IMG/VR virus record: IMGVR_UViG_3300028327_000814
DNA: 64,000 nt
Reading direction: 5' to 3' (one strand)
Origin: a virus
Under the pieces are notes generated by a model. The model ran no database searches and was not told where the DNA came from. It saw only the letters and a list, made by a program, of their open reading frames with translations. Numbering within the stretch: the stretch's first letter is position 1; each line of letters opens with the position of its first letter. The position numbers and the translations under genes are program-made. Below are positions 298 to 33,638 of the stretch, piece by piece.

Positions 298-918
298 TTA
301 TCTATATTTTTCTTCGATTTTTGTTTTTCTTGATTGATATTCTATTGCAGCATCAAAAGGTTCACCGGCGATTTCGGCCTCTTCCTTCAAACGTCTCACT
401 TCCCGTTTTGCGGCGGCCAAGGCTGCTTCCTTTTCTTCGGTTTTTTGTTCTGGGGTAAGATTTGCTAATCGTGCCGCTTCGTTTTGTTCTGCAATTTCTC
501 TTTGCTGTGTCTGGGAAAGTTTATCAGGTAATATTGCATCTTGAGGTAATGATTCTCCAATTTGTTCAATTTTTTGTTTGTTCCAACTTCCGTCTTGTAT
601 TATCCAGTATTCCGTATCCCTCCAGTCGGCTATAATATCACCTGAAAATTGTAGTCTCTCATGAGGATCTAGATTGTCTAGTATACTTTTCAATCTTTTT
701 CCCTCGTCATCATCAACATTTTTTTTCCCCTGGCCAAGATGGGAAAATACTACATTTTCTGCCAAGAGTTCTTCGCGTGTTTTTTTGAGCAAAATATCAG
801 GGGTTTTTGCAATTATAGCCTCAACCTTGGCATTTGTTTCTTCAGGATCAGGTGATGCATTTTCAATACCAATAATAATTTGATAACTTTCAATTTCTAC
901 GAAAGTAATTGTTTTCAT
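298..918 (-). CDS. Probable tail-fibre assembly chaperone (Tfa-like)
   Basis: IADWRDTEYW...KIEQIGESLP resembles tail-fibre assembly proteins; lies at the tail end of the prophage. Confidence 0.55.
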   Translation of the reverse strand: MKTITFVEIESYQIIIGIENASPDPEETNAKVEAIIAKTPDILLKKTREELLAENVVFSHLGQGKKNVDDDEGKRLKSILDNLDPHERLQFSGDIIADWRDTEYWIIQDGSWNKQKIEQIGESLPQDAILPDKLSQTQQREIAEQNEAARLANLTPEQKTEEKEAALAAAKREVRRLKEEAEIAGEPFDAAIEYQSRKTKIEEKYR

Positions 919-1081: not shown

Positions 1082-2056
1082 ATGCAGATAAAAAATTATG
1101 CGGATTTATTTTCGCAAGACGGTTTCTGGCGTGTCAAACGCGCAGAAAAGAAAAAATTTTACACGGACAAGTCGATGGACACAAGGGACGCTGTAATGCG
1201 AAACTGGGTGGTTCCGCTATGGGGAGAAATTAACCCCAAGCGGCTTACTGTCAAAATGATTGACCGAGCGATGATGGGCACCACGTCGAAGCTGACCAAG
1301 CGCACATTGGCGGGAGCGACACGGAACAGAATTTTGTCGGTGTTATCGGAAATGTATGTTCACTTAATCGAGGAAGGAAAATCGCGGATAAACCCTGTTA
1401 GGGACGTTGTGCGGTGTAATTCATACCCCGAACACCCCAGAGGCGTATTGCCGTTAAATGATTTGAAATTACTGTTTCCTGATAATCTTGCAGAATTAAA
1501 ACAAATATGGCGGACGCAAAAATACATCTGCGCGTTTTTGATACTCAGGGACACGGGTATACGCCCTGGGGAATTAGTCGCGCTCAGATGGGGTGATTGG
1601 GATTCAGATATTAAATTCTTTCCAATTTTAAAAGCGCTTGAATCGGGCAGCAAAAATAAAATTAAAGGGACAAAAACAGGTTCAACCAAGCCAGCGATTA
1701 TTACGGATCAGACCGCAGAGGAAATAGAGCGTCTGAAGAAAAAAGTAAAGCCCAAACCTGAAGATTATATTTTTGCCAACAAACACGGCATACCTTACGG
1801 CACCCACCGTCTGTCGTGGAATTTCCGCAAGTCTGTGGAACGCGCCGGAATTGACAAGCCGTATCTCACGCCCTACTGGCTGCGGCACACGTTTAATTCC
1901 ATTTTACTAGAAACTAACTCTACTAAGGTGGTACAGCTCTTAATGGGGCATAACACCGAAGCCATGACGCGCCATTACCGCCACGCGGGGGTTGAATCAT
2001 TGGCGCGAACCGCTGTAAAAATTAGAGATGAGGTTAACGCCTGTAGATTGTACTGA
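1082..2056 (+). CDS. Tyrosine recombinase, candidate shufflon invertase
   Basis: RDTGIRPGE, GTKT, YWLRH, LMGH and RHY catalytic motifs; AGGAGG before ATG 1082 (ORF track starts at TTG 1013); adjacent to the cassette array. Confidence 0.9.
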   Translation: MQIKNYADLFSQDGFWRVKRAEKKKFYTDKSMDTRDAVMRNWVVPLWGEINPKRLTVKMIDRAMMGTTSKLTKRTLAGATRNRILSVLSEMYVHLIEEGKSRINPVRDVVRCNSYPEHPRGVLPLNDLKLLFPDNLAELKQIWRTQKYICAFLILRDTGIRPGELVALRWGDWDSDIKFFPILKALESGSKNKIKGTKTGSTKPAIITDQTAEEIERLKKKVKPKPEDYIFANKHGIPYGTHRLSWNFRKSVERAGIDKPYLTPYWLRHTFNSILLETNSTKVVQLLMGHNTEAMTRHYRHAGVESLARTAVKIRDEVNACRLY

Positions 2057-2259
2057 CCCTTGAGGATTGGGAGGGGAAATTATTTAATAAACCGAATCTG
2101 GTATTATTGCATTACCGACAATACTTTGAAATGTAGTAGCAGGAGTCCACCACACAAAAGGCCTACTATTAGGTGGATGTCTTTAAAATTGACCACTAAT
2201 AAAAAATTTTCCAATTTCATAACGGCATTGTTTGCCTTCTTTTTTATGGGTGCATTCGT

Positions 2260-2448
2260 TCATTGTATATTTAACCCTTTTGAGAAATCTATTTTTTTCC
2301 AGTTTTCAGGGATTTTAGCCCCCTCTAAGCAACAATGCATTTGGCCGTTTTCGTCTATGTAATAATAATACCGAATACCTAACGGCGGACAAGCTTCAAA
2401 GCTGTCCACTATCGTCTTCAACATAATTTCCCCCTCATGCTTAAGCAT
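2260..2448 (-). CDS. Small hypothetical protein with its own promoter
   Basis: 62-aa ORF with a sigma70-like promoter immediately upstream. Confidence 0.45.
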   Translation of the reverse strand: MLKHEGEIMLKTIVDSFEACPPLGIRYYYYIDENGQMHCCLEGAKIPENWKKIDFSKGLNIQ

Positions 2449-2454
2449 ACTATT

Positions 2455-2483
2455 ATAGTAATTCCTCTATAATTTTTTGTCAA
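2455..2483 (-). promoter_or_regulatory. sigma70-type promoter
   Basis: TTGACA-17-TACTAT on the minus strand. Confidence 0.6.
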
Positions 2484-2492
2484 GCAATTTCT

Positions 2493-2757
2493 TTATGATG
2501 GAAATTCCATTGGAGCATACAATAGTGATAAAATACTGACACAAGTAGGATCGTTTGATGTACCAAGTTTTTGGAGCGGTCGTCTAGTGGTAAATCCAAC
2601 TGGAATTATACAAATATTAGGCACAAATACAAATTATGATAGCATCGTAAGCAACCCTTCTCAACAACAGTTACAGTACAAAATACAAGTGGGCTTTGGC
2701 TCCGGGTCGGAGACTAAACCAGTATCTACCTCCGTTTTAGTTTGTATTGCCTATTAA
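2493..2757 (+). other. Silent fibre C-terminal cassette D (87 aa, no start codon)
   Basis: Hand translation is open: YDGNSIGAYNSDKILTQVGS...GSETKPVSTSVLVCIAY-stop. Confidence 0.88.
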
Positions 2758-2761
2758 TTCT

Positions 2762-3017
2762 TTATGATGGAAACGCAATAGGAAGTATAATTGGGGACGC
2801 TATACGGAATATGGAAGGTTCTGTCGGATCGGGAATTGGGCTGTTTGCTAATATACAATCTGGGGTTTTTTCTTTAGACACCACAACAACAGATGTGTAT
2901 CAAGTCGGTACTGGAAACGGCTATAAAACATTAAAATTTAGAGCAAGTAACGTTGTGCCAACCGCTTACGAAAATCGTCCTGCCAGCATCAGTTTTTTGG
3001 TCTGTGTTACCTATTGA
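2762..3017 (+). other. Silent fibre C-terminal cassette C
   Basis: YDGNAIGSIIGDAIRN...YENRPASISFLVCVTY-stop. Confidence 0.88.
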
Positions 3018-3038
3018 TCATTCCGTCAGCGGAAAACT

Positions 3039-3261
3039 TTAATAGGTAATGCAAACTAGAGCGGATATTGACGCGGGGCGGTTTTCGTAGCTTCCGTTAA
3101 AATTTGATGTAGCGTATGTAACTGTATCAAAGCTGTAAACACCAAATTCATGCCCCCCTAAATTATAAGAGGCACTATTTTTATGTGCAAATCCATCTAA
3201 GGGATGCAAATGTGTTTTTAACGCGTCACTGATAAACGCCCCAATCGAATTTCCATCATAA
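3039..3261 (-). other. Silent fibre C-terminal cassette B
   Basis: YDGNSIGAFISDALKTHLH...YENRPASISALVCITY-stop. Confidence 0.88.
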
Positions 3262-3268
3262 GGAATTA

Positions 3269-4057
3269 TCAGTAAGTGATGCAAACAAGGACTGAAAAAG
3301 ACACAGGTTTTGTTTCCGAGTCGCCGTAATAACCTGTATAAGCTTCAGTGTTTGTTACACTCCCGTCAGTTCGCGGCCAATACCTTACATCTCCGAAAAG
3401 ATTATTTCCGACATCTGCAACGCCTATAGATTTGGTATGCAGGTGTGAGCGAACCGCGTCACTCTGATATGTCCCAATTGCGTTTCCATCATAAGGCGTG
3501 GATAATGGATTATTCATATTAGTACGGTAATATGAATTCTGTCCGGCTGCTCGAGGGAAAAGACCACTTATGTCCAAAAGTCTAAAATATAAACCTGTTA
3601 TACTTCTTGTACCGTCTATATTGCATCTATACCACCAAAGAGCATTATTGTTATTGTCATCACCTACATACATTAAATCAAACAAATCTTGATACAACTC
3701 TATTTTAAAAATTTCACCTTTAAGAGGTAAAAGATGCATCTTAATAAGCTGCTCTACAGATGGTTCATAAGCTAACATTACAAGTTCACCAACTCTTCGT
3801 GGTGCAAATCCTTTCTGCATAGCTTTTTTAAGTTGTTCCGGATCCGTATTGTTTGGATCTAACCCAATTTCACTGATTAGATTTTCCATGTTATCAATCA
3901 AGAGATTGAATGTTGCTGCAGGGATATGGGACGGTTTTTTCAGCGGGTCGGAAAAATCCCCGTCGGTAAATTTATGCGTTTCCGGGTCAAGACCGGGATA
4001 CATAACTTGTTCCCCGAAAATTTCAAGTAACTGATCATCTGGATACATTCCTGGCAT
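3269..4057 (-). CDS. Tail fibre (constant N-terminus plus currently expressed cassette A)
   Basis: Follows the gp48-like gene; Mu-type fibre N-terminus; collar-like LPLKG and GLFPRAAG; ends ETKPVSFSVLVCITY. Confidence 0.85.
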   Translation of the reverse strand: MPGMYPDDQLLEIFGEQVMYPGLDPETHKFTDGDFSDPLKKPSHIPAATFNLLIDNMENLISEIGLDPNNTDPEQLKKAMQKGFAPRRVGELVMLAYEPSVEQLIKMHLLPLKGEIFKIELYQDLFDLMYVGDDNNNNALWWYRCNIDGTRSITGLYFRLLDISGLFPRAAGQNSYYRTNMNNPLSTPYDGNAIGTYQSDAVRSHLHTKSIGVADVGNNLFGDVRYWPRTDGSVTNTEAYTGYYGDSETKPVSFSVLVCITY

Positions 4058-4068
4058 TTTAATTCCTC

Positions 4069-4764
4069 CTAAAGTTTATATAAAAAATAAGCAATATTGC
4101 TTGCTATTAATTTGTCGTTTACATCCCGCTCAAAATCATCAAGTATTTCTATTTCTGAAAAAATGCGACTTGAGTAGTCCTTAATAAAAAAAGAACGTCT
4201 AAAAAAATGACCTATACCAAAGCAGCCTTGGCCAAATGAAGAGTTTTTTATCAATTTAGTTATACAATTTTTTGCTTCAATTCTTAATTCTTCATTTTGA
4301 AACGCCGCTATAACATAAAACACCGAATAAAAAGCGGGACGTGAAAATATAGAACGGCCAAATTTGGAGAACCCAAAAAACGAAGGTTTAAACGGAAAAA
4401 TTATATCAATCAATGTCAGACCGTATTTTTGAGCAATATCCGCAATCAATATGCGGTTAATTAATGGAGTTTTTTTTGTCGCTAATATTTTCCGGCGTTC
4501 TTCGATAGGCAGGTGAATATTTGTATATCCCAAAAGGACACGTTCCCAATCGTCTATGCTTTCAACCGCGGTTTGATAATCACTCTCTGCAAGTAAATCA
4601 CTCATTCGTTTTCGCAAATTAATAATTTCTTTTGATTTTGCTTTACAAAATAAATTTAAGTCGGATTCAGGATCAGCAAATTGTTTTTTCCAATATTCAC
4701 CCTGGGGAAACAGATCGCGGATTGCTCCGCTGTAATCTTTTTCAGTAGCCACATTTATACCCAT
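4069..4764 (-). CDS. Baseplate wedge protein (Mu gp48-like, DUF2313)
   Basis: LFPQGEYW and ESIDDWERVLLG; position after the J-like gene. Confidence 0.75.
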   Translation of the reverse strand: MGINVATEKDYSGAIRDLFPQGEYWKKQFADPESDLNLFCKAKSKEIINLRKRMSDLLAESDYQTAVESIDDWERVLLGYTNIHLPIEERRKILATKKTPLINRILIADIAQKYGLTLIDIIFPFKPSFFGFSKFGRSIFSRPAFYSVFYVIAAFQNEELRIEAKNCITKLIKNSSFGQGCFGIGHFFRRSFFIKDYSSRIFSEIEILDDFERDVNDKLIASNIAYFLYKL

Positions 4765-5822
4765 GTTATAGTCCCCAGTACCGGATATTCCAATATTGTT
4801 GTCGATATAATACCGATGATATTCCCCGACAGTTTTATTACTGCGTCTGTTATTGTTACGCCATCAATGACGGCAGTTTTCAACATTCCGGAAGTTATCT
4901 GAATACCCGGCTTTGCGATTTGCTGGAGATATGCTTTTAAGCGCGTTTCCACCAGTTCAATGTTTTTCTGGGTATTCTCAAACGGCATCAATTTTATTTC
5001 AGGATTTAAGGGAATAAGCGAAGGCGTACGCACGTCAAAAATGACCGGAGGAGATACCGTGCTGATATAATTCCGTACTGCCGCAAGGTTTTTTACCTGA
5101 TGGACGCCGCTCATTTGATTGCCGTTTATCACCTGTATAAGCAATGCCCCAAACACCCCGAAATTTCTGAATTCCCATGCGGCGGAAACTTCCGGTGTCG
5201 CGTCCAGCGCCCATGCCTCAAAATCTTTATACTGACCATACCTGTTGGGATTACGCAAAGTAACAAGGACTCTGACAAGATATTCTTCATCGCTTTCAGC
5301 GTCTACCCCCCCAAGAATACCTTCGTCACCAACTTTGGCGTCTGAATCAATGCCAGCCGGAATTGAGGAGACAATACTTAACGGGCTGCCTGTTTCAAGA
5401 TTAGAATCTTTCCCCGCATTTTCCGCTTTTACATTGACAATCACTTTACCGTTACTCGAAATATTATAAGCTTTTTCAGTGAAGTATCTTTTACCTGAAG
5501 CGCTTTTAAAGACAATGCCGGCCGGCGCTGGTTTTCCTGCAATGCCGTTTACTTCGACATTTCCAATTGCCGCTACCGCATACAACGGCGGTACTATCAT
5601 GGACCAATGAGATCTCAAATATTCGCCTTCGGCGGTATCCGGAAACAGTTGTTTTGACAGAAAAACCAAATCACCTTGCAAAAGATGAGACAGGCCGGCA
5701 TCGACATTCGCCATCACTGAAACAAGGTTATAACGCGGCGTCCTGTCCATCGGTTTGAACAGGCTCAAATAATTGGCTGCCGTCCTTTCTTTCAGGACTT
5801 GTAAACTATCTCTGTTAAACAT
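4755..5822 (-). CDS. Baseplate J-like protein (Mu gp47)
   Basis: QLFPDTAEGEYL, GGVDAESDEEY and DFEAWAL motifs; start placed at ATG 5822. Confidence 0.88.
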   Translation of the reverse strand: MFNRDSLQVLKERTAANYLSLFKPMDRTPRYNLVSVMANVDAGLSHLLQGDLVFLSKQLFPDTAEGEYLRSHWSMIVPPLYAVAAIGNVEVNGIAGKPAPAGIVFKSASGKRYFTEKAYNISSNGKVIVNVKAENAGKDSNLETGSPLSIVSSIPAGIDSDAKVGDEGILGGVDAESDEEYLVRVLVTLRNPNRYGQYKDFEAWALDATPEVSAAWEFRNFGVFGALLIQVINGNQMSGVHQVKNLAAVRNYISTVSPPVIFDVRTPSLIPLNPEIKLMPFENTQKNIELVETRLKAYLQQIAKPGIQITSGMLKTAVIDGVTITDAVIKLSGNIIGIISTTILEYPVLGTITWV

Positions 5823-6156
5823 CTTTCCAAACATCCTTAATAAAAATACTGCCGCCGTCTGGCTGTATTGTTTCAACGGTGTATGAAATTACATTTTTGC
5901 CGGTACGTTCAACGGCACAATTTATTTGCCGGGCAAGTCCGTCAGTTACAATCCATGAAAGACATTCCTGCAGCATCCGTTTAAAATTCCCCGCTGTTTT
6001 TTCGTCAACTTTGCCGTTCTCCCTTAATAAGTAAAGTTCGCTTCCGAAATTTGGATCTGCCCACCACGAGCCTTTATCAGTGCCGATACTCATTTGCACA
6101 AGTTCGCGGATGTCTGTCCAGTTTTCGACAGCTACCGTTTTATTTGCCTGTTCCAT
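5815..6156 (-). CDS. Mu gp46-like baseplate protein
   Basis: GSWWAD...GSELYLL, LSWIVTDGLA. Confidence 0.8.
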   Translation of the reverse strand: MEQANKTVAVENWTDIRELVQMSIGTDKGSWWADPNFGSELYLLRENGKVDEKTAGNFKRMLQECLSWIVTDGLARQINCAVERTGKNVISYTVETIQPDGGSIFIKDVWKDV

Positions 6157-6709
6157 GCAACACCTTTTTATTTTCCAAGTTTGAAAAATCTTCTTTATTA
6201 ACCAATGCAGCTAACATTGCGGCAATTTGCGCTTTATATGTCGCGCCGCCGTCCTGTACGGCAGTCTGCGAATTTTTGAGCGCGTCTATAATCCCGTCAA
6301 CACGAGCCGACAATTTATTAAGCTGGCTTTCAAGCTCGGCGGCTTTGACTACGCCGCCGGCATCGGTTCCAAAAAGTTCCAGCGTCCCTTTTTCCCGCGC
6401 TATTATCCAACCGCCTTCTTGGGTATACAGCGCGGAATCGCCTTCTTCCAATTGCGGCGGGCATACTTCGTCATCAGCCGTTAGTGGCATAATTTCAAAG
6501 CCGCCGAAATCCCCTCCCTGACAAAAAACAAACGTCTTGCCTGTTTTAGCTTTGGCGGTAAAGCCATAGGGAAACGCTTCTTTTTTTTCTATGACCCTGC
6601 CGGAATGTGTTTTTACCTGCAGTCTGCCGTCATCATAACGTTTTTCAAATTTGGCTATTGAGAAAGTGTTACGAATTTTGGCTCTTATTTGACCAAACAA
6701 ATCATTCAC
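6140..6709 (-). CDS. Baseplate spike (Mu gp45-like)
   Basis: PYGFTA...LEEGDSALY; synteny. Confidence 0.75.
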   Translation of the reverse strand: MNDLFGQIRAKIRNTFSIAKFEKRYDDGRLQVKTHSGRVIEKKEAFPYGFTAKAKTGKTFVFCQGGDFGGFEIMPLTADDEVCPPQLEEGDSALYTQEGGWIIAREKGTLELFGTDAGGVVKAAELESQLNKLSARVDGIIDALKNSQTAVQDGGATYKAQIAAMLAALVNKEDFSNLENKKVLHGTGK

Positions 6710-19167: not shown

Positions 19168-20025
19168 TTACAAAGCGTTCACCACTTCGGCATCAACGCA
19201 TTTAGCGCCGAGTTCGCAGGCGGCGTTCATCGCCTTCATGCACCAGTTGTTGATCAACAGCGGATAGGCGACCGAATAGATTTGCTGGGTTCGCGTCTGT
19301 CGTCTTAGTTTGGCGGCAAGCGCGGCGCAGCCCGAATCATTGATAATGTCAAGACGGTTTTTGTTGAGCCTTGCGAATTTAATGTCAAGATATTTCGCGA
19401 TCTCTTCGCCGCTTCCAAGCGGTTCCAGTTCCAGAACTTCCATGCGCCGGATAACTTCCCGCGCTTCCCAGTTTTTGGATTCGTCAAGTTTCATTTTCAT
19501 TTCAATCTGTCCGATTAAAACGATTGACAACAGCTTTTTGTAGCCGTCTTCAAGTTCCCAAAACCGTTTCAGGTACTTGAGGGTGTTGATGTTCAAATCA
19601 TGCGCTTCCTCGATCATCAGTACGTGGCTCCATCCGGCGCGGCTGGAGTTTGTTAAAATCCGTTCTATCTGCCGTGCTTTCGCTTCCAATGTCCGCTTCG
19701 GCGCTTCCGTGGAACAGTCGTTTATAATCGCGTCACAGATGCCGCCCGTTGAAAGACGCGTCTTGTCGATACAGCGCGGCGCGATTACGCGCACTTTCTG
19801 GCCTTCGGCGGCCATGCGGTCTATCGCGTAACGGCGGATCGTGCTTTTTCCGCTCCCGCTTTCTCCTACCAGCGCGACCATGCCTCCGGCCTTCGCCGAT
19901 TGCAAAATGTATTCCGCTATAAACCGGGTGTCCTCGGTCAGGTACACGTCCTCGGCTTTCACCACATCACCCGAAAAGGGATCGGCTTTCAGCCCGAATT
20001 TTTTAAAAGTTTTTAGTGTTAACAT
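19168..20025 (-). CDS. Transposition AAA+ ATPase (MuB functional equivalent, ExeA-type)
   Basis: Walker A GESGSGKS, Walker B MIEEAH; follows the transposase. Confidence 0.9.
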   Translation of the reverse strand: MLTLKTFKKFGLKADPFSGDVVKAEDVYLTEDTRFIAEYILQSAKAGGMVALVGESGSGKSTIRRYAIDRMAAEGQKVRVIAPRCIDKTRLSTGGICDAIINDCSTEAPKRTLEAKARQIERILTNSSRAGWSHVLMIEEAHDLNINTLKYLKRFWELEDGYKKLLSIVLIGQIEMKMKLDESKNWEAREVIRRMEVLELEPLGSGEEIAKYLDIKFARLNKNRLDIINDSGCAALAAKLRRQTRTQQIYSVAYPLLINNWCMKAMNAACELGAKCVDAEVVNAL

Positions 20026-20034
20026 ATTTTCTCC

Positions 20035-21726
20035 TTATGCAAATTTAAGAATCTTCTCAAAGGGCTTTTCTTCCTGTTGCCCTTTGTACTTGTTTACCAA
20101 ATCATCAAGCAGGTTGGACGGCGTTCCTTCGGGATACGCTTCCTTCAACCATTCGATGAAACCTTCCGGCACATAACCGAGTACCGGCTTAATCCGTTTC
20201 GCCATTTCGGTCGCGCTGATTAAAATCTCGTGGGTATGAATTGTTTCTGCGATCTCTATTCTGCTTCCTTCGGTCTGACGCATAAACGGATTTTCCGGTT
20301 GTATGAAGCTGTGCGCCGGACCCATGACCGATTCAAGAGCAGGATTTTCAAGAGACTTCTTTTGTTTTTCCCTCGCCGTGTCCTTATGCCGTTTGTAATT
20401 CACGCCGAATACGGGAGCGGTGATGTCAAAACCGGCTTCGTCAAATTCAATCGGTTCAATCTCAAAACTCAATTCTTCGCCCTTGTATTCGTAACTTACG
20501 ATGCAGACGGGATCTTCCGTCACCAGCACAGGCTGTAGGCTCACTTCCATTCCAACCAGTACGCCCTGCAAATCGCGGAGGCTGTATTTCAGAGACCGCT
20601 TTGCCCTCGGATGCACGATGCTTACGGTTAAATCCCCCGCGACCTTTCTAGTCTGTATGCCGCTTGCAAAAACCTGACGGCAAATTTCCTCATCGGGCAA
20701 TTCCCGCAGGTTTTCTTTTGCGATACGCTGCCAAAGCACAACTCGGCTTTGATTAATGCCGCTACGGCGCAAACGTGTATCAAGGTGAGGGATCATGTTG
20801 GCGTTATACGCCGCGCACCACCGCTCAACAGATTCATTCAATTCTTCAATGCTGTTTACAGGTTCAAAGCGCAAGCGGCTTTCAAACTGCGTTTCAACGA
20901 TGTTATTCGCATTTTCTACTTGCCCTTTTGCTCTTGGGTTACCAGGCATATGCGGATTTGTTTTAACATTAAACGCCTTGAGAGCGTTGGTGATTGGTTT
21001 GGCGATGTTACCAGTACCGCAGTCCCAAATCAACAATTCAGGGATTCCGTGAAAAACATAAGTGTTGTTCTCTTTCCGTCCCCAAGCGTATAACAGGAAG
21101 TCGTACATATTGGCGGCGGTTTCGCCCATCGCCGCGTAATAGCGGACGCATATTGAGCCGGAGTAATGATCTGTAAGCACATAACGTAAACACTTTTGGC
21201 GCCCTTCAAGAAAATTTTTATTTTTGTATAATTCGTCATCGTTAATGATTTTCTGTTTTCCGTTAGGCGCGAAATATAAAAGACATACTGACGGGTCTGT
21301 AAAATGAACCTGATTCGGGTATTCGCTTCTCATGCTTTGATGCGGCGTTGGAATCTTGCTGTCTGCTACAGACAGGTGATTTTCGCGTAACAGCATACGC
21401 AAGCGGCTGTCGCTTACCGGCACATCGATCCCCCGCGATTGAAGTATTGATCTTGCGACGTTCACAGGGAGAGTCGCCTTGCCGTTTTTTCGTATGCACT
21501 GTTTGACCATATCGGCGACCGCCAACAGGAGTTTTTCATCAAGGCTGGTTTCTCCGACATCTTTGCGTTTTTCACGCCCGGATTCCCAGCCGTTTTCTTT
21601 TAACACCTTGTAGGCTTTCGCCGGTGAGAAAGCGAACATACGGCACATATCGGCGACCACCGCCTTATGTTCAGCGTTGGTTTCGGCGGCGTTCATCCTA
21701 TCGACATACGGCTGATACACAGGCAA
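20035..21726 (-). CDS. DDE transposase (MuA functional equivalent)
   Basis: VHFTDPS, LIWDCGTGN, PRAKGQVENAN. Confidence 0.92.
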   Translation of the reverse strand: MPVYQPYVDRMNAAETNAEHKAVVADMCRMFAFSPAKAYKVLKENGWESGREKRKDVGETSLDEKLLLAVADMVKQCIRKNGKATLPVNVARSILQSRGIDVPVSDSRLRMLLRENHLSVADSKIPTPHQSMRSEYPNQVHFTDPSVCLLYFAPNGKQKIINDDELYKNKNFLEGRQKCLRYVLTDHYSGSICVRYYAAMGETAANMYDFLLYAWGRKENNTYVFHGIPELLIWDCGTGNIAKPITNALKAFNVKTNPHMPGNPRAKGQVENANNIVETQFESRLRFEPVNSIEELNESVERWCAAYNANMIPHLDTRLRRSGINQSRVVLWQRIAKENLRELPDEEICRQVFASGIQTRKVAGDLTVSIVHPRAKRSLKYSLRDLQGVLVGMEVSLQPVLVTEDPVCIVSYEYKGEELSFEIEPIEFDEAGFDITAPVFGVNYKRHKDTAREKQKKSLENPALESVMGPAHSFIQPENPFMRQTEGSRIEIAETIHTHEILISATEMAKRIKPVLGYVPEGFIEWLKEAYPEGTPSNLLDDLVNKYKGQQEEKPFEKILKFA

Positions 21727-24568: not shown

Positions 24569-25267
24569 ATGAATTTTGCAAAAAGTATAGAAAAAATACG
24601 AACACAATTAAACGTTTCTACGGCAGCCTTAGAAAAATTCTTAGGCTTGTCAAATGGGTATATTTCGAATATTGAAAAAAATGGAACAGATAACCCTGGA
24701 AAACTCCTAATTGCCCTCAAAGAAAAAGGTATAAGTACGGATTGGTTCCTGACTGGCGAAGGCGAAATGTTCAGGAATCAAGAACCTGAGAGCACTGCGC
24801 CGGAGAAACCTGCCAAAACTGTTTTTGAAATCCCTCTTTTGACCAAAGAACATCTATTGTCCTTTGACCCCGAAAAAGAAATCCCTGAAAGGGAGCGGAA
24901 GGCGAATTCCGGGGATTATCCGGACTTAACTTATATCCCTGTTCCTATGCGTGTTATGGAATACAGTACCGACCTCCGCGCGGCGGTGGCGTTCGACAGC
25001 CGCATGGCTCCCATTATCCGCTCAGGCGACATCGCCATTTTCGAGGCTACCGGCTGGGGTGGCAACGGCATTTACCTCTATCGGATGGGCGGCAAACTTC
25101 ATATCGGCTACGTCGGGCATTATGATAACACGCATCATTTATTTGATGAACGGAAAAACGATGAACTGCCGTATGACGAGACATTTAAGGCGATAGGCAG
25201 AGTCCGCGCCGTGGTCAGCGATTTATCCGGCAACGACTGGAAAGGCGGCAAGCAGCCGCCAAATTGA
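24569..25267 (+). CDS. CI-like repressor (HTH plus S24-like C-terminal domain)
   Basis: LGLSNGYISNIEK, ISTDWFLTGEGEM, RMAPIIRSGDIAIF. Confidence 0.85.
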   Translation: MNFAKSIEKIRTQLNVSTAALEKFLGLSNGYISNIEKNGTDNPGKLLIALKEKGISTDWFLTGEGEMFRNQEPESTAPEKPAKTVFEIPLLTKEHLLSFDPEKEIPERERKANSGDYPDLTYIPVPMRVMEYSTDLRAAVAFDSRMAPIIRSGDIAIFEATGWGGNGIYLYRMGGKLHIGYVGHYDNTHHLFDERKNDELPYDETFKAIGRVRAVVSDLSGNDWKGGKQPPN

Positions 25268-25270
25268 GGA

Positions 25271-26269
25271 GTGATGATGAAAAAATTAATATTTCTTATT
25301 ACTTTTATTTTTTTGGCTTATTCGACATATGCACAAAAATTTGATTTTCCTATTGTCAGCAATACAGTTCCTTCTGTGCAAAATGCTTTCATTGCATTGT
25401 TGCATAACATGGCCTATTTAAGCGAAAAATCTACAATGGTAGATAATATAAAATATGAAAATACAAACATTAGATATATTGAATACATTGATTTTATATT
25501 AAATAAAATGACGTTTGAAAATATACGAAATTATTTTTTAAGTATTTCTCAAAACATTGAAAGAATAGATTATTTAAGTTTATCTAAGAAACAACAAGAA
25601 AATTTTGAATATTTTTTACGAACTGCAATAGTAGATAGTTGGACATTTGGAACAGGAAGCATTGATTTTGTTAATCTTCCCATTATTGAAAATAGCGATA
25701 TAAATCTGGATGCGTTTAACGATAAAATAATACAAGAACAAAATAATATTACGAACTATGAAACGCAATTAAATGCCCTGCCTAAACTTGAAGCTATCCA
25801 AAAAATGATAGATGATGCAGTTATAGAATATCGTGAATTACAAAACAGTACCCCCAAGACAGCAAGAGCTGTTCAGAATAAAGAAAACCGCATGGCTGAG
25901 TTAAAAAATATTGAGGCAAAAGCACGCAAGCAACATATAGAAGTTTCTGATCAAATAAAAATTTTAAAAAGCAGAATTTCATCATCAAGAACAAATATAC
26001 GAAATATTGAATTACAGAGAGAAAATGAAATAAAAAATTTAAATGAAAAAGCAAAACAAAACTACATAAAGAATCTGCATGATAATATAAACAACTTTTA
26101 CCAGTGGAAAGATTTTTTTAATAACAAAAACAATATTATAAGAGAATATTTAATAGCTATTGATATCCGCGGTCATCTTACTGGAGTTATTAATGATTAT
26201 ATACCGCAAAGGCAGGTTCAAAGTTTCCGTACAAGGCTTGATGCTTTTTGTGCAGGATGGGGAATATAA
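25271..26269 (+). CDS. Exported coiled-coil protein (moron)
   Basis: Signal peptide MKKLIFLITFIFLAYSTYA; AT-rich; 3 bp after the repressor. Confidence 0.7.
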   Translation: MMMKKLIFLITFIFLAYSTYAQKFDFPIVSNTVPSVQNAFIALLHNMAYLSEKSTMVDNIKYENTNIRYIEYIDFILNKMTFENIRNYFLSISQNIERIDYLSLSKKQQENFEYFLRTAIVDSWTFGTGSIDFVNLPIIENSDINLDAFNDKIIQEQNNITNYETQLNALPKLEAIQKMIDDAVIEYRELQNSTPKTARAVQNKENRMAELKNIEAKARKQHIEVSDQIKILKSRISSSRTNIRNIELQRENEIKNLNEKAKQNYIKNLHDNINNFYQWKDFFNNKNNIIREYLIAIDIRGHLTGVINDYIPQRQVQSFRTRLDAFCAGWGI

Positions 26270-26286
26270 AAGGAGGATAATTTTTT

Positions 26287-26463
26287 ATGGAAAACGATTC
26301 TGTAAAACGCAAAGAGGCAATGGAACTGGCGATAAAGACCGTTGCAGTCTGCCCTGAATTTTTTTCAAAATCAGCAACACCCACAGAACGGACTTTAGGA
26401 GCGATGATAGTGCGTGAAGCAAAAACTATTTACGACTATCTTTATCCGGAGGGAAAACAGTAA
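26287..26463 (+). CDS. Small hypothetical protein (58 aa)
   Basis: AGGAGG upstream; MENDSVKRKEAMELAIK... Confidence 0.45.
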   Translation: MENDSVKRKEAMELAIKTVAVCPEFFSKSATPTERTLGAMIVREAKTIYDYLYPEGKQ

Positions 26464-26651
26464 TTGCCAAAGCCTGGTTAAATTGTTCATCTTTCTTTAC
26501 GGCAATTACATCGTATCCGAATTTGGCCAGCAGATTGGCGGCGCGGATCAAGTCGTTTTTGTTTTTCTTGCGTTTTTTATTTTCAGCCATATTCACATGG
26601 TAGCGTATGGCAGGGCTGTTATTACAATAATGACTAATATTAATTAAAGCT

Positions 26652-26684
26652 AAAAAAAAGGCGAGGATAACCCCCGCCTTTTTT
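26652..26684. terminator. Bidirectional intrinsic terminator
   Basis: AAAAAAAGGCG-loop-CGCCTTTTTT between convergent genes. Confidence 0.65.
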
Positions 26685-26697
26685 GGTCCCTTTGCTG

Positions 26698-27009
26698 CTA
26701 GTAAAAAACCTGTCCGGGACTGAAATTAATGAAACTTGTCTTTTCGGTTTTAATGTTCTTTGTCAAACCGATAAAACTAATTTCCGGCACTGCTGTCTCA
26801 TACGGGATTGTTTCCGAGGATATAATACGGGAATCCGTCGATAGATTAACCGTACACCCTAAGAATTCCCCGATATCAAAACCTTCATCCAACGAAAGCT
26901 GGATTAAAACAGGTTCAGCATCGACAGTGTAGCTTGCCCTTTCATCCGCCATTACGCCCATAAGGGCAATCAGGCAAAAGAACAAGGCAAAAAGTAAAAT
27001 ACGTTTCAT
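26698..27009 (-). CDS. Exported hypothetical protein
   Basis: Signal peptide MKRILLFALFFCLIALMGVMA; AGGAGG upstream. Confidence 0.6.
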   Translation of the reverse strand: MKRILLFALFFCLIALMGVMADERASYTVDAEPVLIQLSLDEGFDIGEFLGCTVNLSTDSRIISSETIPYETAVPEISFIGLTKNIKTEKTSFINFSPGQVFY

Positions 27010-27176
27010 GTAACGCCTCCTATAAAAAATTAGCGGTCACGAGTCCGACCGCCAAGGACATCAAACCAATTAAAGGAGTAAAGTAGGCATTGTCAGAATA
27101 ACCTGACAACAGCCAAAAAATACAATAATTATAATTATTGTAAATCGCGGCCCGTAAATCGGTACGATTTTACAAT

Positions 27177-27494
27177 ATGGTAGAAAATAAGAAGTTTTCG
27201 TTTTCAATTTTCTTAATCAAGATAACATCCCGCGCATTCTGGGTTTGGCTCATTACTACGGGGATAGTTTGTTATGTAATTTACAAAATATTAAACGCTG
27301 AAAAACCCCAAACTTACACATGGATTCCTATTCTCCTGTGGATATGGGGAGGAACGGCGCTTCTTTTTATCGGCGGTAGGGTACTGCTAGACGCGTTAGG
27401 CAAAATGGTAGAAAAGGCAAACCTGACCATAAACCAAAATAACAACATCAGCGCAAGCACGCAAATCTCCGGAACTCTGGGAGCGACAAAATGA
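27177..27494 (+). CDS. Holin-like protein
   Basis: Two TM segments; immediately before the endolysin. Confidence 0.65.
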   Translation: MVENKKFSFSIFLIKITSRAFWVWLITTGIVCYVIYKILNAEKPQTYTWIPILLWIWGGTALLFIGGRVLLDALGKMVEKANLTINQNNNISASTQISGTLGATK

Positions 27495-28135
27495 AAATCG
27501 TCAATAACAGTGACGGCAAGCCGTATTATACCCAGCGCAATAATGAATTATTCCCAAGCTCCGCATGTAACGTGACGAGCATGGTTTCAGGTCTGGCAGC
27601 CGCGGGCTGGCCTTTTGCCGCCGGAAAATATAGGCAGCCCGAAGACAACCTGATGGATTTTATTCGTAGCAACCCGACGGTAAAAAAGAGATGGGACGTT
27701 ATTGATCCGCAGCATACAACGCCGCCAAACCAGATTCATGAATTGATTTGTCTTGGAACCAATCTTTGGATCGAACATCTTAAAGGACCGAAAATTGAAC
27801 TGCTTTGGCAATTGTACCCTTCCGATGTCGTCAAAATAATTGACGAAGGCGGGGCCGTGGTCATGTCAGGCAGGTTTCAAGACTCTAAGATCGGCTACTT
27901 GGGGCATATCGTCGCCGTGGTCGGATACCAGGCTACGGATGCCGGAGAGATAACTCATTTTATCATTGACGATCCCTGGGGAGATTACGAAACACTTTAC
28001 AGAGTTCAGCGCGGCGATGATGTGTTTATGCCGTTATCTGATTGGCTGTCTATGATGAGGGAGCAAAAAAACCCGTATAAATTCGGTCATGTCATTAAGA
28101 AGTTTAAGACGCAGGGGACGGAATGTGGCGGCTAA
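27491..28135 (+). CDS. Endolysin candidate, C39-like cysteine peptidase
   Basis: QRNN..SACNVTS (Cys), GHIVAVVGY (His), IIDDPWG. Confidence 0.75.
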   Translation: MKIVNNSDGKPYYTQRNNELFPSSACNVTSMVSGLAAAGWPFAAGKYRQPEDNLMDFIRSNPTVKKRWDVIDPQHTTPPNQIHELICLGTNLWIEHLKGPKIELLWQLYPSDVVKIIDEGGAVVMSGRFQDSKIGYLGHIVAVVGYQATDAGEITHFIIDDPWGDYETLYRVQRGDDVFMPLSDWLSMMREQKNPYKFGHVIKKFKTQGTECGG

Positions 28136-28560
28136 ACTCAAAAAAACTATTTTTTATATCGCTGTTACTGTGCTTGTTTTCGGCGCGGGTTTTTTCGCAA
28201 GGGGTCTATTTGACCGAAAGCGAATATCGGGAACTGTTGAACCTTATCAAAACATCCAAAACGAACTCCGAAGCGCAGACGAAGCTCATAACAGAATTGA
28301 AGAGAGTATTGGCGGAGCAAGAAACGGAGTTACGTCAGGCATTGAACTTTCTGGAACAATCGGAAGCGGACTTGACGGAATTGAAAGCCTCGCTGTCGAG
28401 AATACGGACTTACTCGGAAGAGCTGAACGAATACTGCTTAACGCTGGAGCAAGAGAACAAAGCCCTTAACAAAAAAAACAAGGGATTAAAGATAGGGCTT
28501 GGAATATCATCCGGCGCAGCCGGAGCTTTATTAGTTGCACTTTTAATATTGATTTTATAA
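28123..28560 (+). CDS. Signal peptide, coiled coil and C-terminal TM protein (spanin-like)
   Basis: MWRLNSKKLFFISLLLCLFS...; heptads; GLKIGLGISSGAAGALLVALLILIL. Confidence 0.6.
   Translation: MWRLNSKKLFFISLLLCLFSARVFSQGVYLTESEYRELLNLIKTSKTNSEAQTKLITELKRVLAEQETELRQALNFLEQSEADLTELKASLSRIRTYSEELNEYCLTLEQENKALNKKNKGLKIGLGISSGAAGALLVALLILIL
28125..28469 (+). CDS. Embedded N-anchored coiled-coil protein (i-spanin-like)
   Basis: GTG overlaps the ATG of the partner (ATGTG); TM IFYIAVTVLVFGAGFFA. Confidence 0.5.
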   Translation: MAAKLKKTIFYIAVTVLVFGAGFFARGLFDRKRISGTVEPYQNIQNELRSADEAHNRIEESIGGARNGVTSGIELSGTIGSGLDGIESLAVENTDLLGRAERILLNAGAREQSP

Positions 28561-28626
28561 ATACAATAACCGCCATTAGGGGAAATATAACGGCGGCCTG
28601 TTTTAAATTATAAAGCGGAGGGATTT

Positions 28627-28950
28627 GTGGAAATAGCGAAATTTGTATTGACGGCGATTGGCACTTTTTTGTCGGTCTTCGCGCTTTCGTTTACGGTATT
28701 TCAATACTGGCGGAAAAAGCAGGATGAAAAATTTGATCTGCTCAAAAAGTCTTTGGAAAACATCATACAGAAAGAAATCGACAACCGTAAGGAATCAATA
28801 GCGCACATGGAAGGGCGTGTTAGTTCCCTTGAAAATACCATGTCACAGAGGTTTGAAAACCGTCTAAGCGTGATTGAAGGCGAACTACGCGGAATCAAAC
28901 CGATTTTACAATCAATTCAAAACTGGTTCATCAATAACAAAAAGGGGTAA
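28627..28950 (+). CDS. Membrane-anchored coiled-coil protein (Mu gp25-like position)
   Basis: N-terminal TM; synteny before gp26. Confidence 0.6.
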   Translation: MEIAKFVLTAIGTFLSVFALSFTVFQYWRKKQDEKFDLLKKSLENIIQKEIDNRKESIAHMEGRVSSLENTMSQRFENRLSVIEGELRGIKPILQSIQNWFINNKKG

Positions 28951-28953
28951 ACA

Positions 28954-29247
28954 ATGGCAGACATTTTTTTACCTCTCCGCCGTATCATTATACTCCAAGG
29001 GATAGAAGCAGCACCCGGGCGTGAACTGTCCAACGAAATGATACAGCGACTTTTAAAATCCCACTGCCACGCTTGTTCCATCGCCGAGATCAACGAACAA
29101 ATAAACTGGCTTGAGAACCGTGGTTATGTGAAGGCGACGCGCATGGGCGATTCCGGTTTTATTAACGTACATATTACCCGACCGGGAATTGACGTAGCCC
29201 AGGGCAACACCCGCGCCGAAGGCATCGACCCGCCTCCGGAGGTATAG
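28954..29247 (+). CDS. Mu gp26-like winged-helix protein
   Basis: QINWLENRGYV, ITRPGIDVAQG. Confidence 0.75.
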   Translation: MADIFLPLRRIIILQGIEAAPGRELSNEMIQRLLKSHCHACSIAEINEQINWLENRGYVKATRMGDSGFINVHITRPGIDVAQGNTRAEGIDPPPEV

Positions 29248-29248
29248 A

Positions 29249-29800
29249 ATGGGCCAAAAAAGCTCCATTGACAAACTGCCGAAAAAACTCCGTGACAAGC
29301 TGATAGAGATGTTACAAAACCCAGCCGTAACACAGGCTGAAATTGTTGACGCGATAAACGCCGAGGCAGGCGAGCCGCTTATTTCAAAATCGTCAATGAA
29401 CCGCTACGCGCAAAAAATGAAACACTTCACGGAAAAGAACCGGCAGGCGAAAGAGATCGCCGACGCGTACATTGAGAAATACGGCAGCGAAAACCGGCAG
29501 AACCTCGGCAAAGTAATCAACCAGCAAATGCGCGTGGCGATATTCGACCTTATGGGCGAGTTTGAAGAAATCCTTGCCGACCCTGAAACAAAAAGCGTGG
29601 AAGCGGCGGACATACTCTACAAAATATCGCGCGGTCTTAAAGAGCTTGAGCAAGCGGAAAAACTGAACGCAGAGCGTACCCAGCACATACGCCAAGAAGC
29701 GTTAGCCGATGCCGCCGAGATTGTGGAGAAAGAAGCGAAATCAGCAGGGCTTGACGAATCCGCACTGGAGATTATCAAGCGTAAAATTTTGGGAATATAA
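29249..29800 (+). CDS. Terminase small subunit (Mu gp27, DUF3486)
   Basis: MGQKSSIDKLP, ISKSSMNRY. Confidence 0.85.
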   Translation: MGQKSSIDKLPKKLRDKLIEMLQNPAVTQAEIVDAINAEAGEPLISKSSMNRYAQKMKHFTEKNRQAKEIADAYIEKYGSENRQNLGKVINQQMRVAIFDLMGEFEEILADPETKSVEAADILYKISRGLKELEQAEKLNAERTQHIRQEALADAAEIVEKEAKSAGLDESALEIIKRKILGI

Positions 29801-29811
29801 GGAGAGACAAG

Positions 29812-30051
29812 ATGAATCCACAATTTATTAAGTATGGAACACCGTCAATAAAGCTTATTGAGGAATGTTCAGAGGTAATTCATGCTCTGTGCAAGGCTGA
29901 CCGCTTCGGGCTTGACGACCACCACCCTGAAAAAAACATCACAAATCGCGATTCCATAAATTCGGAAATTAACGACTTGCAAATAGCAATTAAAAATTTT
30001 CAAGAATGGGAAAAAAGCATTCCTGTCGGAAGTGACAGGAAAAGGAAATAA
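29812..30051 (+). CDS. MazG-like nucleotide pyrophosphohydrolase
   Basis: KLIEECSEVIHALCK ... EINDL acidic helices. Confidence 0.55.
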   Translation: MNPQFIKYGTPSIKLIEECSEVIHALCKADRFGLDDHHPEKNITNRDSINSEINDLQIAIKNFQEWEKSIPVGSDRKRK

Positions 30052-30057
30052 AACCCC

Positions 30058-30261
30058 ATGAATGAAAATTTACTACCATGCCCATTTTGCGGTGAAATTC
30101 CTATATTAAGTAAATATAAAAATCTAAAAAATAAATCGTTTTACTACACATATCATGTTTGTGGCGATGGTTCAATGATTTGGATAAAAACCGCATTTTT
30201 CAAAACAAAAAAAGAAGCCATTGCCGCATGGAATAAGAGGACTGATAAACCTCATGAATGA
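30058..30261 (+). CDS. Lar-like restriction alleviation protein
   Basis: LLPCPFCG ... EAIAAWNKR. Confidence 0.75.
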   Translation: MNENLLPCPFCGEIPILSKYKNLKNKSFYYTYHVCGDGSMIWIKTAFFKTKKEAIAAWNKRTDKPHE

Positions 30262-31723
30262 AGACGTACTCCTTCCTTACCAAAAAGCGTGGATAGAAGA
30301 CAAGTCCAGCGTCAAAGTCTGGGAGAAATCCCGGCGCATTGGAGCGTCTTATGTCGAAGCGTTGGACTCGGTACTGGAAGGCGCAAAGTCAAAAGAGGCG
30401 GGCGGTCAATCTACATATTACCTTTCCTATTCCAAAGAAATGACACAGCAATTTGCGAGGGACTGCGCGTTCTGGGCAAAACACATAAACGCCGCCGCTT
30501 CCGAACTTGAAGAAATCGTACTCAATGATGAGGACAAAGATATTACCGTCTACCGCATACGTTTCGCATCAGGCTTTGAAATATGGTGTCTGCCGTCTGT
30601 CGCTCGTTCGCTCCGTTCCAAACAGGGACGGGTTATCATTGACGAAGCGGCGTTTGTCGAAGATTTGGGTGCACTCTTAAAAGCGGCGATGGCGCTTCTT
30701 ATGTGGGGCGGTTGCGTCAGGATTTTATCAACGCATAACGGCGATGATAATCCGTTCAACGAACTTATCAAAGAGATAAAAGAAGGGAAAAAAGACTACA
30801 GCCTCCACCATACCACATTTGACGAAGCTCTGGCGCAGGGTTTATATAAACGAATTTGCCTTGTTCAAAAAAAAGAATGGTCGCCTGAAGCGCAGGAAGT
30901 TTGGCGGCAGAAAATTATTGACGAATACGGCGAAGACGCCGATGAAGAATTATTTTGTATTCCCGTCCGTGCCGGAACACGATACTTCCCATCGGCGTTG
31001 CTTGAGGCAGTTTCCGATCCTAGCGCAAAAGTTCTGCGTAAAACCTGCGATGACGGCTTCACTTTCGTAGAAAAAGAAAAGCGTGTCAAAGAATTTGACA
31101 CTTGGCTTAAAAACGAAGTCCGTGACACATTGCTGCTTCATACCAATCCAGTATATCTGGGCGAAGACTTTGCCCGTTCCGGCGACCTGACCGCCATATT
31201 CCTTGACGAGCTGATGCCTGACGGAAAACTGCTTACATTCCTTGTAATCGAATTGCGTAACGTGCCGTTTGACCAACAGTTGCAAGTCATTTTGTATCTT
31301 ATGAATACCGTGCCGAATTTCGGCGGCGGAGCGTTTGACTCACGAGGTAACGGTCAGATGATCGCCGAATACGCGGCGCAGGAATATCCGGGCTATGTGT
31401 ATCAGGTAATGATCACTATGGCATGGTACGGGCAAACATTCCCCAAACTGAAAGAACGAATGGAAGACGCTACCACTACCATTCCCGATGACGCTTCTAT
31501 CCGTGAGGATTTTCGGGTTGTCGGAATCAAAGCGGGCGTTCCCTGCGTGCTTGAGCGTTCCGGCGGTATCCGAGAACGGCGGCACGGCGACGGAGCGATT
31601 GCGAAACTTATGGCGGTCTACGCCGCTGACAATGACGAAGAAAAAGGCTACCAGCCTATGACATACGAATCGGTAGAAACACCTAACAGATATAAAACAG
31701 GAGGTAAAGACCCGTGGGACTGA
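30254..31723 (+). CDS. Terminase large subunit (Mu gp28-like)
   Basis: LLPYQKAW, EKSRRIGAS, IIDEAAF, GEDFARSGD, HGDGAIA. Confidence 0.93.
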   Translation: MNEDVLLPYQKAWIEDKSSVKVWEKSRRIGASYVEALDSVLEGAKSKEAGGQSTYYLSYSKEMTQQFARDCAFWAKHINAAASELEEIVLNDEDKDITVYRIRFASGFEIWCLPSVARSLRSKQGRVIIDEAAFVEDLGALLKAAMALLMWGGCVRILSTHNGDDNPFNELIKEIKEGKKDYSLHHTTFDEALAQGLYKRICLVQKKEWSPEAQEVWRQKIIDEYGEDADEELFCIPVRAGTRYFPSALLEAVSDPSAKVLRKTCDDGFTFVEKEKRVKEFDTWLKNEVRDTLLLHTNPVYLGEDFARSGDLTAIFLDELMPDGKLLTFLVIELRNVPFDQQLQVILYLMNTVPNFGGGAFDSRGNGQMIAEYAAQEYPGYVYQVMITMAWYGQTFPKLKERMEDATTTIPDDASIREDFRVVGIKAGVPCVLERSGGIRERRHGDGAIAKLMAVYAADNDEEKGYQPMTYESVETPNRYKTGGKDPWD

Positions 31724-33622: not shown

Positions 33623-33638
33623 AAGCAAGGAGTAAGTT

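Follow-up and report, generated by a model that had tools for sequence, protein, structure and literature searches.

A probable tyrosine-recombinase shufflon for tail-fibre tips in a Mu-like prophage of termite-gut Treponema

The viral record IMGVR_UViG_3300028327_000814 (64,000 nucleotides; this whole stretch is called the window below) comes from termite-gut metagenomes. Its relatives are named as Treponema sp. metagenome-assembled genomes, and the element that it holds is a Mu-like transposable prophage of termite-gut Treponema. Here, we describe a locus of this prophage in which a tail-fibre gene, three silent cassettes for alternative fibre tips and a tyrosine recombinase gene lie together, and we weigh whether it works as a shufflon, as proposed in an earlier reading of the sequence (the original prediction). 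The locus consists of the following genes and frames (aa, amino acids):

1082-2056, plus strand: tyrosine recombinase of 324 aa, the proposed invertase (PF00589, E 2e-22), convergent with the fibre gene
2494-2757, plus strand: silent cassette D, 87 codons and a stop, inverted relative to the fibre gene, with no start of its own
2763-3017, plus strand: silent cassette C, 84 codons and a stop, inverted relative to the fibre gene
3039-3260, minus strand: silent cassette B, 73 codons and a stop, direct relative to the fibre gene
3269-3493, minus strand: tip A, the expressed tip of 74 aa, a core-headed open frame inside the fibre gene
3269-4057, minus strand: tail-fibre gene of 262 aa, with a constant part (residues 1-188) and the fused tip A (residues 189-262)

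All four tips are headed by the same 12-mer core, TTATGATGGAAA, which has four exact copies in the 64 kb, two per strand and within 1 kb of each other, at 2493-2504(+), 2762-2773(+), 3250-3261(-) and 3483-3494(-). No further copy was found in the 64-kb window when one mismatch was allowed; at this same threshold, shuffled controls gave a mean of 0.70 copies, and four copies were reached in 2 of 100 shuffles. The four cores are all in frame as Y-D-G-N, and each heads an open frame of 73-87 codons. The last 74 aa of the fibre gene start at the core, as the original prediction had stated, and the three silent cassettes that it described, two inverted and one direct, all open and with a common ending, were recovered as frames B, C and D. 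The tips end in SETKPVSFSVLVCITY, YENRPASISALVCITY, YENRPASISFLVCVTY or SETKPVSTSVLVCIAY, and all four endings follow the pattern (E)T/N-K/R-P-x-S-x-S-x-L-V-C-x-x-Y before the stop codon. Only the first ~12 and the last ~16 residues are common to the four tips; their middles, which had been called unrelated, are indeed only 14-26% identical in pairwise comparison. Cassette D has no ATG, GTG or TTG near its head, and for this reason it was missed, as already noticed, by the list of open reading frames (ORFs), which gives only 2587-2757. A computed search of inversions between opposed cores gave 12 arrangements, in which tip A is reached with no inversion, C or D with one and B with two; the earlier claim of four tips accessible by one or two inversions agrees with this count.

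The fibre gene product matched the PHROG family 'tail collar fiber protein' (E 9e-4). Conservation among 35 fibre homologues extends over the constant part as far as PYDG and again over the C-terminal motif, with a hypervariable stretch in between, and Gp10_C domains were present in fibre relatives, in the same direction as the PHROG collar match. Structure prediction, which had been suggested for the tips, was informative for part of the protein: the AlphaFold model of the fibre was confident at residues 90-165 and in the last strand, 257-261, and the tip had a predicted local distance difference test (pLDDT) score <50. A fold search of the PDB with this model returned nothing significant; its weak top rows (E ~0.3) were the T4 gp12 receptor-binding domain and cyanophage fibres, a hint only. 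The PHROG match, the Gp10_C relatives and these weak fold rows point the same way, towards a collar/gp12-like fibre. We also noticed an H-x-H motif ~17 residues past the core in tip A (SHLH) and tip B (THLH), which resembles metal-binding gp12-type fibre heads. Tips C and D are without this motif, and C has a GDAIRN-type head that is frequent in relatives. One shufflon thus seems to hold tips of two structural classes.

The cores lie in longer candidate recombination sites, of which three are silent and one is within the fibre gene:

2486-2506, plus strand: site a, the outermost silent site, AATTTCT-TTATGAT-GGAAATT, dyad 6/7
2755-2775, plus strand: site b, silent, beginning at the cassette D stop codon
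3248-3268, minus strand: site c, silent, TAATTCC-TTATGAT-GGAAATT, directly after the fibre-gene stop codon
3481-3501, minus strand: site d, in-gene, CCACGCC-TTATGAT-GGAAACG, coding T-P-Y-D-G-N

Site a reads exactly as the original prediction gave it. From the core on, site b and the in-gene site are identical at 20 of 21 nt (95%). The dyad arms that had been ascribed to the silent sites were present at site a, with complementarity of 6/7 around the 7-bp TTATGAT; the other two silent sites had only 3/7 and 5/7, and the in-gene site had 3/7. To place these values, we surveyed 37 sites in 15 loci of the family (L-numbers below denote relative loci or contigs from other samples). The mean dyad around TTATGAT was 4.45/7 for silent sites and 2.67/7 for in-gene sites across the family; dyad arms are only a family tendency. 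Silent sites in the survey read tTTcCT followed directly by TATGATGGaaa, and in-gene sites read CGCcT followed directly by TATGATGGAAA. The invariant part is CC/CT-TTATGAT-GG, with a partly conserved right arm (GGaaa) and a left arm that is conserved by class, TTTCC in silent and CGCC in in-gene sites; the silent left flanks are TTTCCT or TTTTCT, and the in-gene flank is CGCCT in 5 of 6 cases and CGCTT in L005. Furthermore, the synonymous choice TAT-GAT was kept in 34 of the 37 sites, that is, the core is conserved at synonymous positions. The three exceptions are all three sites of L005, which have TACGACGGAAAGTTGCCGGG / TACGACGG in common. This amounts to a concerted change within one locus, as expected if the sites of a locus must match. 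The crossover spacer is probably the 7-bp TTATGAT.

The association of recombinase, cassettes and fibre is conserved among relatives. A protein search with the recombinase returned at least 212 clusters (90% identity), all from termite gut or Treponema; more than 120 of them were at least 61% identical to the query, nearly all with a length of 323-325 aa and all annotated 'integrase'. Homologues with 70-85% identity adjoin cassette arrays in relatives, and in 13 of 13 loci with usable downstream sequence (L001, L002, L009, L010, L011, L012, L013, L015, L016, L019, L020, L025 and L040) we found an array of 2 to at least 5 cassettes or a contig that stops at the first core. Of the family's silent cassettes, 27 are complete, and each of these is open, keeps the C-terminal motif and has no start of its own. 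The phage backbones differ: the window and L016 are Mu-like, L002 has a 1257-aa protein upstream of the fibre instead of Mu-type baseplate genes, and L040 has a separate 484-aa tyrosine integrase of its own (400-1854). In L040, 7129-7605 and beyond encodes a 3465-aa protein with LPD23 and MuF_C, and this phage carries the P0090 shufflon. When silent cassettes were compared with the expressed tips of other loci, no recently shared tip was found (best identity 28-51%).

Recombinant junctions at the cores were found in contigs of close relatives. An all-against-all nucleotide comparison of the first 24 loci gave no phage pair in two arrangements; the informative pairs came from exact-protein look-ups of recombinases. 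L038, from another sample, is 100% identical to L016 over 3.5 kb, and its end is a perfect reverse copy of its own 4281-4406. At its junction, the expressed tip runs through CCTTATGATGG into the left flank of the L016 silent site at 6532, in reverse orientation, and this is what inversion between site 6532 and the in-gene site predicts. In L043, the left flank of L040 site 2 is joined to the in-gene tip; in L041, the left flank of L040 site 1 is joined to cassette 2 in direct orientation; and L042, a contig of the L040 phage, stops at the first core. The sequence common at the junctions of L038, L043 and L041 is 11-13 nt long, and the junctions should come from reads because this is far below the k-mer sizes of assembly. 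In addition, an identity of 94.8% between L036 and L037 runs through 3072 nt of baseplate and fibre and breaks off at the in-gene core TATGATGGAAAG; their tips are 37% identical. Besides these pairs, five contigs end in the core (L003, L011, L012, L039 and L042), and four end ~k-1 past it (L009, L015, L020 and L034); the latter were not taken as proof of inversion by themselves, given the looped ends of L015 and L019 described next and the end of L033, which falls 40 nt inside a cassette. Two contigs loop back into themselves in direct orientation, starting exactly at the core: L015 2820-2945 equals its own 1768-1893 (126/126 nt), and L019 2696-2784 equals its own 2432-2520 (89/89 nt). Each looped end reflects an alternative pairing of left flank and cassette, a duplicated cassette or an excised circle. 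Outside the phage region, the homologous bacterial genes (DUF212, S4-domain) of L038 1-1750 and L016 2155-3900 are only 69-83% identical; the 100% identity begins at about L038 1750, and the switch lies ~300 nt outside the presumed phage end.

The tyrosine recombinase that the original prediction placed at 1082-2056 is confirmed by its PF00589 match. The gene is intact and lies ~440 bp from the outermost site. Its product is Xer-like and falls far below every NCBIfam equivalog cut-off; the XerD/XerC models cover residues ~64 to ~310, and alignment to XerA/XerD puts Arg161, Arg268, His290 and Tyr299 at catalytic positions. No integron-integrase signature was found in the protein (TIGR02249, 30 bits vs a cut-off of 265; NF011946, 25 vs 435). 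Identity to R64 Rci was 23% over 236 aa (pairwise E 1e-4), and the protein is not an Rci-family member. Matches in the phage and plasmid collections were integrases at 23-29% identity: the best tblastn matches in the phage collection were integrases of other hosts (25-29% identical), and among the organisms of the 85 plasmid matches, Escherichia and Salmonella, in which IncI plasmids usually reside, were not in the ten commonest. A second tyrosine recombinase in the window, at 45696-46685(+), is 49% identical to the first from end to end and has the same His-to-Tyr change, which is described below. It sits in a separate siphovirus-like region with an SPP1-type portal, a tape measure and a Gp10_C fibre at 53703-55757. 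Neither a cassette array nor convincing inverted sites were found near it. Beside the fibre gene, no serine invertase was found, only PF00589; the scan for PF00239 did not cover the remaining window exhaustively. The 1082-2056 recombinase is probably the catalyst of inversion.

The anatomy of the locus, the conserved linkage of recombinase, cassettes and fibre, the DNA-level constraint on the core and the recombinant junctions in close relatives are direct observations, and three features general to shufflons are present: multiple cores in both orientations, cassettes that can be fused in frame and an adjacent dedicated recombinase. As to a further such feature, alternative arrangements of one element, recombinant junctions were seen in relatives whose flanks are 100% identical (L038 against L016, L043 and L041 against L040). 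Most probably, this locus serves as a tyrosine-recombinase shufflon by which the tail fibre exchanges its receptor-binding tip. In the mechanism that we propose, the constant part of 188 codons ends in the P-Y-D-G codons, where the DNA, CC-TTATGAT-GG, would double as the recombination core. The three promoter-less and start-less cassettes, two inverted and one direct, begin with the same core. The adjacent Xer-like recombinase would pair two opposed cores, exchange strands within ~11 bp of identity and invert the DNA between them. An in-frame fusion of the constant part to a different tip would result, with the previous tip parked as a silent cassette; one inversion would express C or D, and two would express B. 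Because only their first ~12 and last ~16 residues are common, the four tips should bind different receptors, and tip switching probably changes the host range.

A number of observations weigh against this reading. The window element was found in one arrangement only, in five contigs (ENA and Logan assemblies), and the Logan contigs of four runs, which are contig-level data, had no strand-change joints at cores. The original prediction had proposed to look for mixed orientations in long reads; in the contigs, recombinant core junctions were seen in relatives and not in the window element itself. Contigs drop minor variants and the depth was ~13x, which bounds alternatives to a minority; assemblies at 13x are compatible with a minority arrangement of 10-15%. 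In the recombinase, Tyr265 replaces the first His of HxxR in the XerA/XerD alignment (the resulting PYWLRH motif is also present in the translations of L001, L002, L016 and L025), and the role of catalyst was assigned to this gene by adjacency only. At the sites, the right arm changes with whichever codon follows G (GGAAA, GGCGG, GGATT), which leaves the dyad model weak for many of them. Furthermore, five contigs from five samples (L028-L032) have a recombinase homologue without downstream cassettes, and L036 keeps cassettes with no recombinase gene before its homologue of a 206-aa ORF (298-918 in the window), where the contig ends; the linkage of recombinase and cassettes is thus not absolute.

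Some further searches and details of these relatives can be added. Loose Logan ends at 2503, 2812, 3483 and 3500 stem from related phages sharing the core. A nucleotide search of the phage collection with the 5-kb region gave no match, the in-gene junction had 0 exact occurrences in the viral contigs scanned, and no protein was found in which the window fibre carries a different tip, the next match being 59% identical; the search with the L016 fibre protein found neither the protein itself nor a chimera. The recombinase of L028-L032 is 75% identical to that of the window and lies between bacterial genes (PGM, TAtT, DctP) and the start of a lipoprotein-like gene. Contigs of this group built with k=141 and k=31 stop 221 and 110 nt past the stop codon, and therefore the assembly graph branches at CCGTACAATGG, a core-like P-Y-N-G sequence, left over from a former site or else a core used in an att-like way. 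L036 has the same Mu-like baseplate and fibre, and at 3366-3760 and 3782-4303 it has one silent cassette and two truncated facing heads (3629+, 3701-), with the homologue of the 206-aa ORF directly after; from this layout, it looks like a decayed, locked shufflon. In L002 (58-1034), a three-tip locus that is typical in other respects, the recombinase frame is split into overlapping ORFs 58-609 and 564-1034 by a frameshift or an assembly error.

Three other explanations were weighed. The family may work while the window prophage switches no longer or very rarely, with its cassettes as a static archive; weak expression of the recombinase, the His-to-Tyr change in the active site or prophage decay could be behind this. 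The single arrangement in the five contigs and in those of the four runs fits such a copy, as do the unusual prophage order, with terminase, portal and MuF on the opposite arm from protease and capsid, and the existence of decayed relatives (L036, with no recombinase beside its cassettes, and L002, with a frameshifted one). We nevertheless regard this as unlikely: the window recombinase is full length and aligns from end to end with homologues from loci showing recombinant junctions, its Tyr change is shared with L016, whose sibling L038 carries such a junction, none of the four cores has a mismatch, every cassette is open, and assemblies at this depth could miss the minority arrangement given above. 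The window copy probably still switches. Exchange of tips by general or phage recombination, or by gene conversion, at the PYDG-coding motif is very improbable, although tail-fibre mosaicism via homologous recombination at conserved motifs is well established. The 11-13 nt of identity at the crossovers is too short for efficient RecA-type exchange, the core is fixed at its synonymous positions, which change only in concert within one locus, and the left flanks of silent sites are conserved though non-coding. This account would also leave the tyrosine recombinase to other work (mobilising the module, dimer resolution or integration), which we hold to be just as improbable; the cassette-free L028-L032 beside bacterial genes agree with it, as their branch at CCGTACAATGG could be att-like, but the recombinase keeps its place beside the cassettes on backbones that are unrelated and are equipped with a transposase or integrase of their own.

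The third explanation adds integron-like traffic to inversion: the recombinase would also excise cassettes as circles between direct cores and re-insert them, and arrays would gain, lose and exchange tips between phages. Long runs of cassettes in the same orientation (L009, L015 and L005), the direct re-entry of the L015 and L019 ends into their own contigs, the direct joint in L041, the very high diversity of tips and the spread of the module across backbones would all be accounted for. Two successive inversions, however, can also yield every such junction, with any left flank meeting any right, and no circle or empty-site pair was seen. The recombinase is also without the integron-integrase signature (30 bits for TIGR02249, as above); attC-like hairpins were not sought. 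We therefore consider such traffic quite improbable. The looped ends, the same-orientation arrays and the presence on at least three phage backbones are possible traces of it, and there is a correspondingly slim chance that the module is a portable, self-loading tip library that moves between unrelated termite-gut phages via the 11-bp core.

Around the shufflon, the prophage carries further genes that bear on how it is placed:

298-918, minus strand: conserved ORF of 206 aa at the prophage end, just outside the recombinase, with only weak PHROG matches
2260-2448, minus strand: small conserved ORF of 62 aa between the recombinase and the outermost site
4069-6709, minus strand: Mu-type baseplate genes (gp48-, Baseplate_J/gp47-, gp46- and gp45-like), directly upstream of the fibre gene and in the same operon direction
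19168-21726, minus strand: MuB-like ATPase and MuA-like transposase (phrog_296, E 1e-42; phrog_310, E 7e-70; AAA_22)

The best PHROG match of the 206-aa ORF was 'tail fiber assembly' (E 0.006), and the ORF is possibly related to fibre assembly. Its homologues flank the recombinase in L016, L001, L038-L040 and L045. Similarity of the window to L016 starts near 230, with bacterial genes following in L016, and the recombinase therefore lies at the prophage end, as gin does in Mu. For the 62-aa ORF, the profile and PHROG searches gave no family match; a 53-aa homologue lies at the same place in L001, and L016 and L040 lack the ORF. Just outside the outermost silent site there is a conserved TTGACA box, at 2455-2483(-) in the window, ~2630-2654 in L001 and ~5820-5844 in L020. 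In the window, it belongs to a sigma-70-like TTGACA-17-TACTAT (2483-2455, -) that abuts site a and precedes the 62-aa ORF, and it may be part of the site or the promoter of this ORF. The prophage also encodes a Mu-like head protease, capsid, sheath and DUF3164, and as it has MuA/MuB-like transposase genes, it does not need a tyrosine integrase for integration. Between 17000 and 36000, the minus strand carries the transposase, MuB-like, late activator (Mor/C-like), protease, capsid and tail genes, and the plus strand (24569-35982) carries a repressor-like HTH protein, terminase, Mu portal and MuF. Behind this split gene order lies a rearrangement of the prophage, a pair of partial prophages or a genome plan that is unusual.

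The class of mechanism is already known, and the locus works like Rin and Rci; the host phylum and the type of phage are new. Our literature search found no paper on such a system in spirochaete, termite-gut or Mu-like phages. The closest precedent is the Rin shufflon, which the original prediction did not mention and which lowers the novelty of the locus. Rin, from Bifidobacterium breve/longum prophages, was presented in 2018 as the first phage-encoded tyrosine invertase, and it lies beside a constant receptor-binding protein (RBP) gene and promoter-less variable C-terminal cassettes in both orientations, giving up to 5 tips (Mavrich et al. 2018; PMC6109161); it was later reported in Eggerthella lenta prophages (PMC8778435). 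Both systems have a phage-encoded tyrosine recombinase of Xer-like size without an arm-binding domain beside the constant fibre/RBP part, a short asymmetric repeat before each cassette and a separate integration enzyme, and in both, variants are seen as alternative junctions in sequence data. The window has this architecture, with a 324-aa Xer-like protein, MuA/MuB-like genes and the order fibre-cassettes-recombinase. The differences lie in the host (Spirochaetota here, Actinomycetota for Rin), in the Mu-like contractile tail and transposase of the window and L016, and in the core, which here is CCTTATGATGG inside the P-Y-D-G codons of a collar/gp12-like domain, whereas Rin uses the 11-bp TTCCCTAACCC upstream of the Rv genes. 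This comparison with Rin is by description, and no Bifidobacterium record was among the listed tblastn matches in the phage collection.

The original prediction had instead drawn the parallel with the R64/IncI shufflon, in which the Rci recombinase acts on sfx sites of pilV (PMC9045228). The geometry of this parallel holds: both are multiple-inversion systems with a tyrosine recombinase, alternative C-terminal segments are attached to a constant N-terminal part, and asymmetric sites have a crossover core of 7 bp, putative in our case, and a left arm that differs between in-gene and other sites; the expected outcome is a changed specificity of surface recognition. As for the enzyme, the parallel fails, with 23% identity, no Rci C-terminal extension and Tyr for the His of Rci in HxxR. 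In addition, the target here is a phage tail fibre and not a conjugative pilus adhesin, and the recombinase is convergent with its target gene, whereas R64 rci has the same orientation as pilV. An sfx site has a 7-bp core, a right arm of 12 bp that is conserved, and a non-conserved left arm; here, the right arm is partly conserved and the left arm is conserved within its class.

The same outcome is reached by other enzymes. The Mu Gin/G segment, P1 Cin and p15B Min (summarised in PMC6109161) use serine invertases with an enhancer and Fis, and an assembly gene (U/U') lies inside the segment. As in Gin, the invertible region here is at the distal end of the fibre gene, near a Mu-type prophage end, with the recombinase just beyond; there, the fibre C-terminus is swapped and host range is changed, and Min does likewise with several crossover sites. 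The locus differs from Gin, Cin and Min in its tyrosine recombinase, its four tips and the absence of a chaperone gene per cassette. Type I restriction systems (Mycoplasma, Streptococcus pneumoniae and Bacteroides) have hsdS shufflons with tyrosine recombinases, and in them, too, silent half-genes are swapped in by a neighbouring recombinase at short inverted repeats in coding sequence; there, the exchanged parts are DNA-recognition domains of a methylase, and here, they are the receptor-binding tips of a virion.

A shufflon at this locus explains why contigs of these phages break there in metagenomes. The whole recombinase family is labelled 'integrase', which can mislead calls of lifestyle and of prophage boundaries. 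The 324-aa recombinase with its ~11-bp core is also a compact candidate tool for programmable inversion, and the crossover inside the conserved P-Y-D-G of a collar/gp12-like domain offers a natural point of splicing for the exchange of receptor-binding tips. Host-range switching by a serine invertase has its textbook case in Mu; this spirochaete phage of the Mu type uses a tyrosine recombinase and four tips for it. Rci is only distantly related, and the solution appears to have arisen separately from it.

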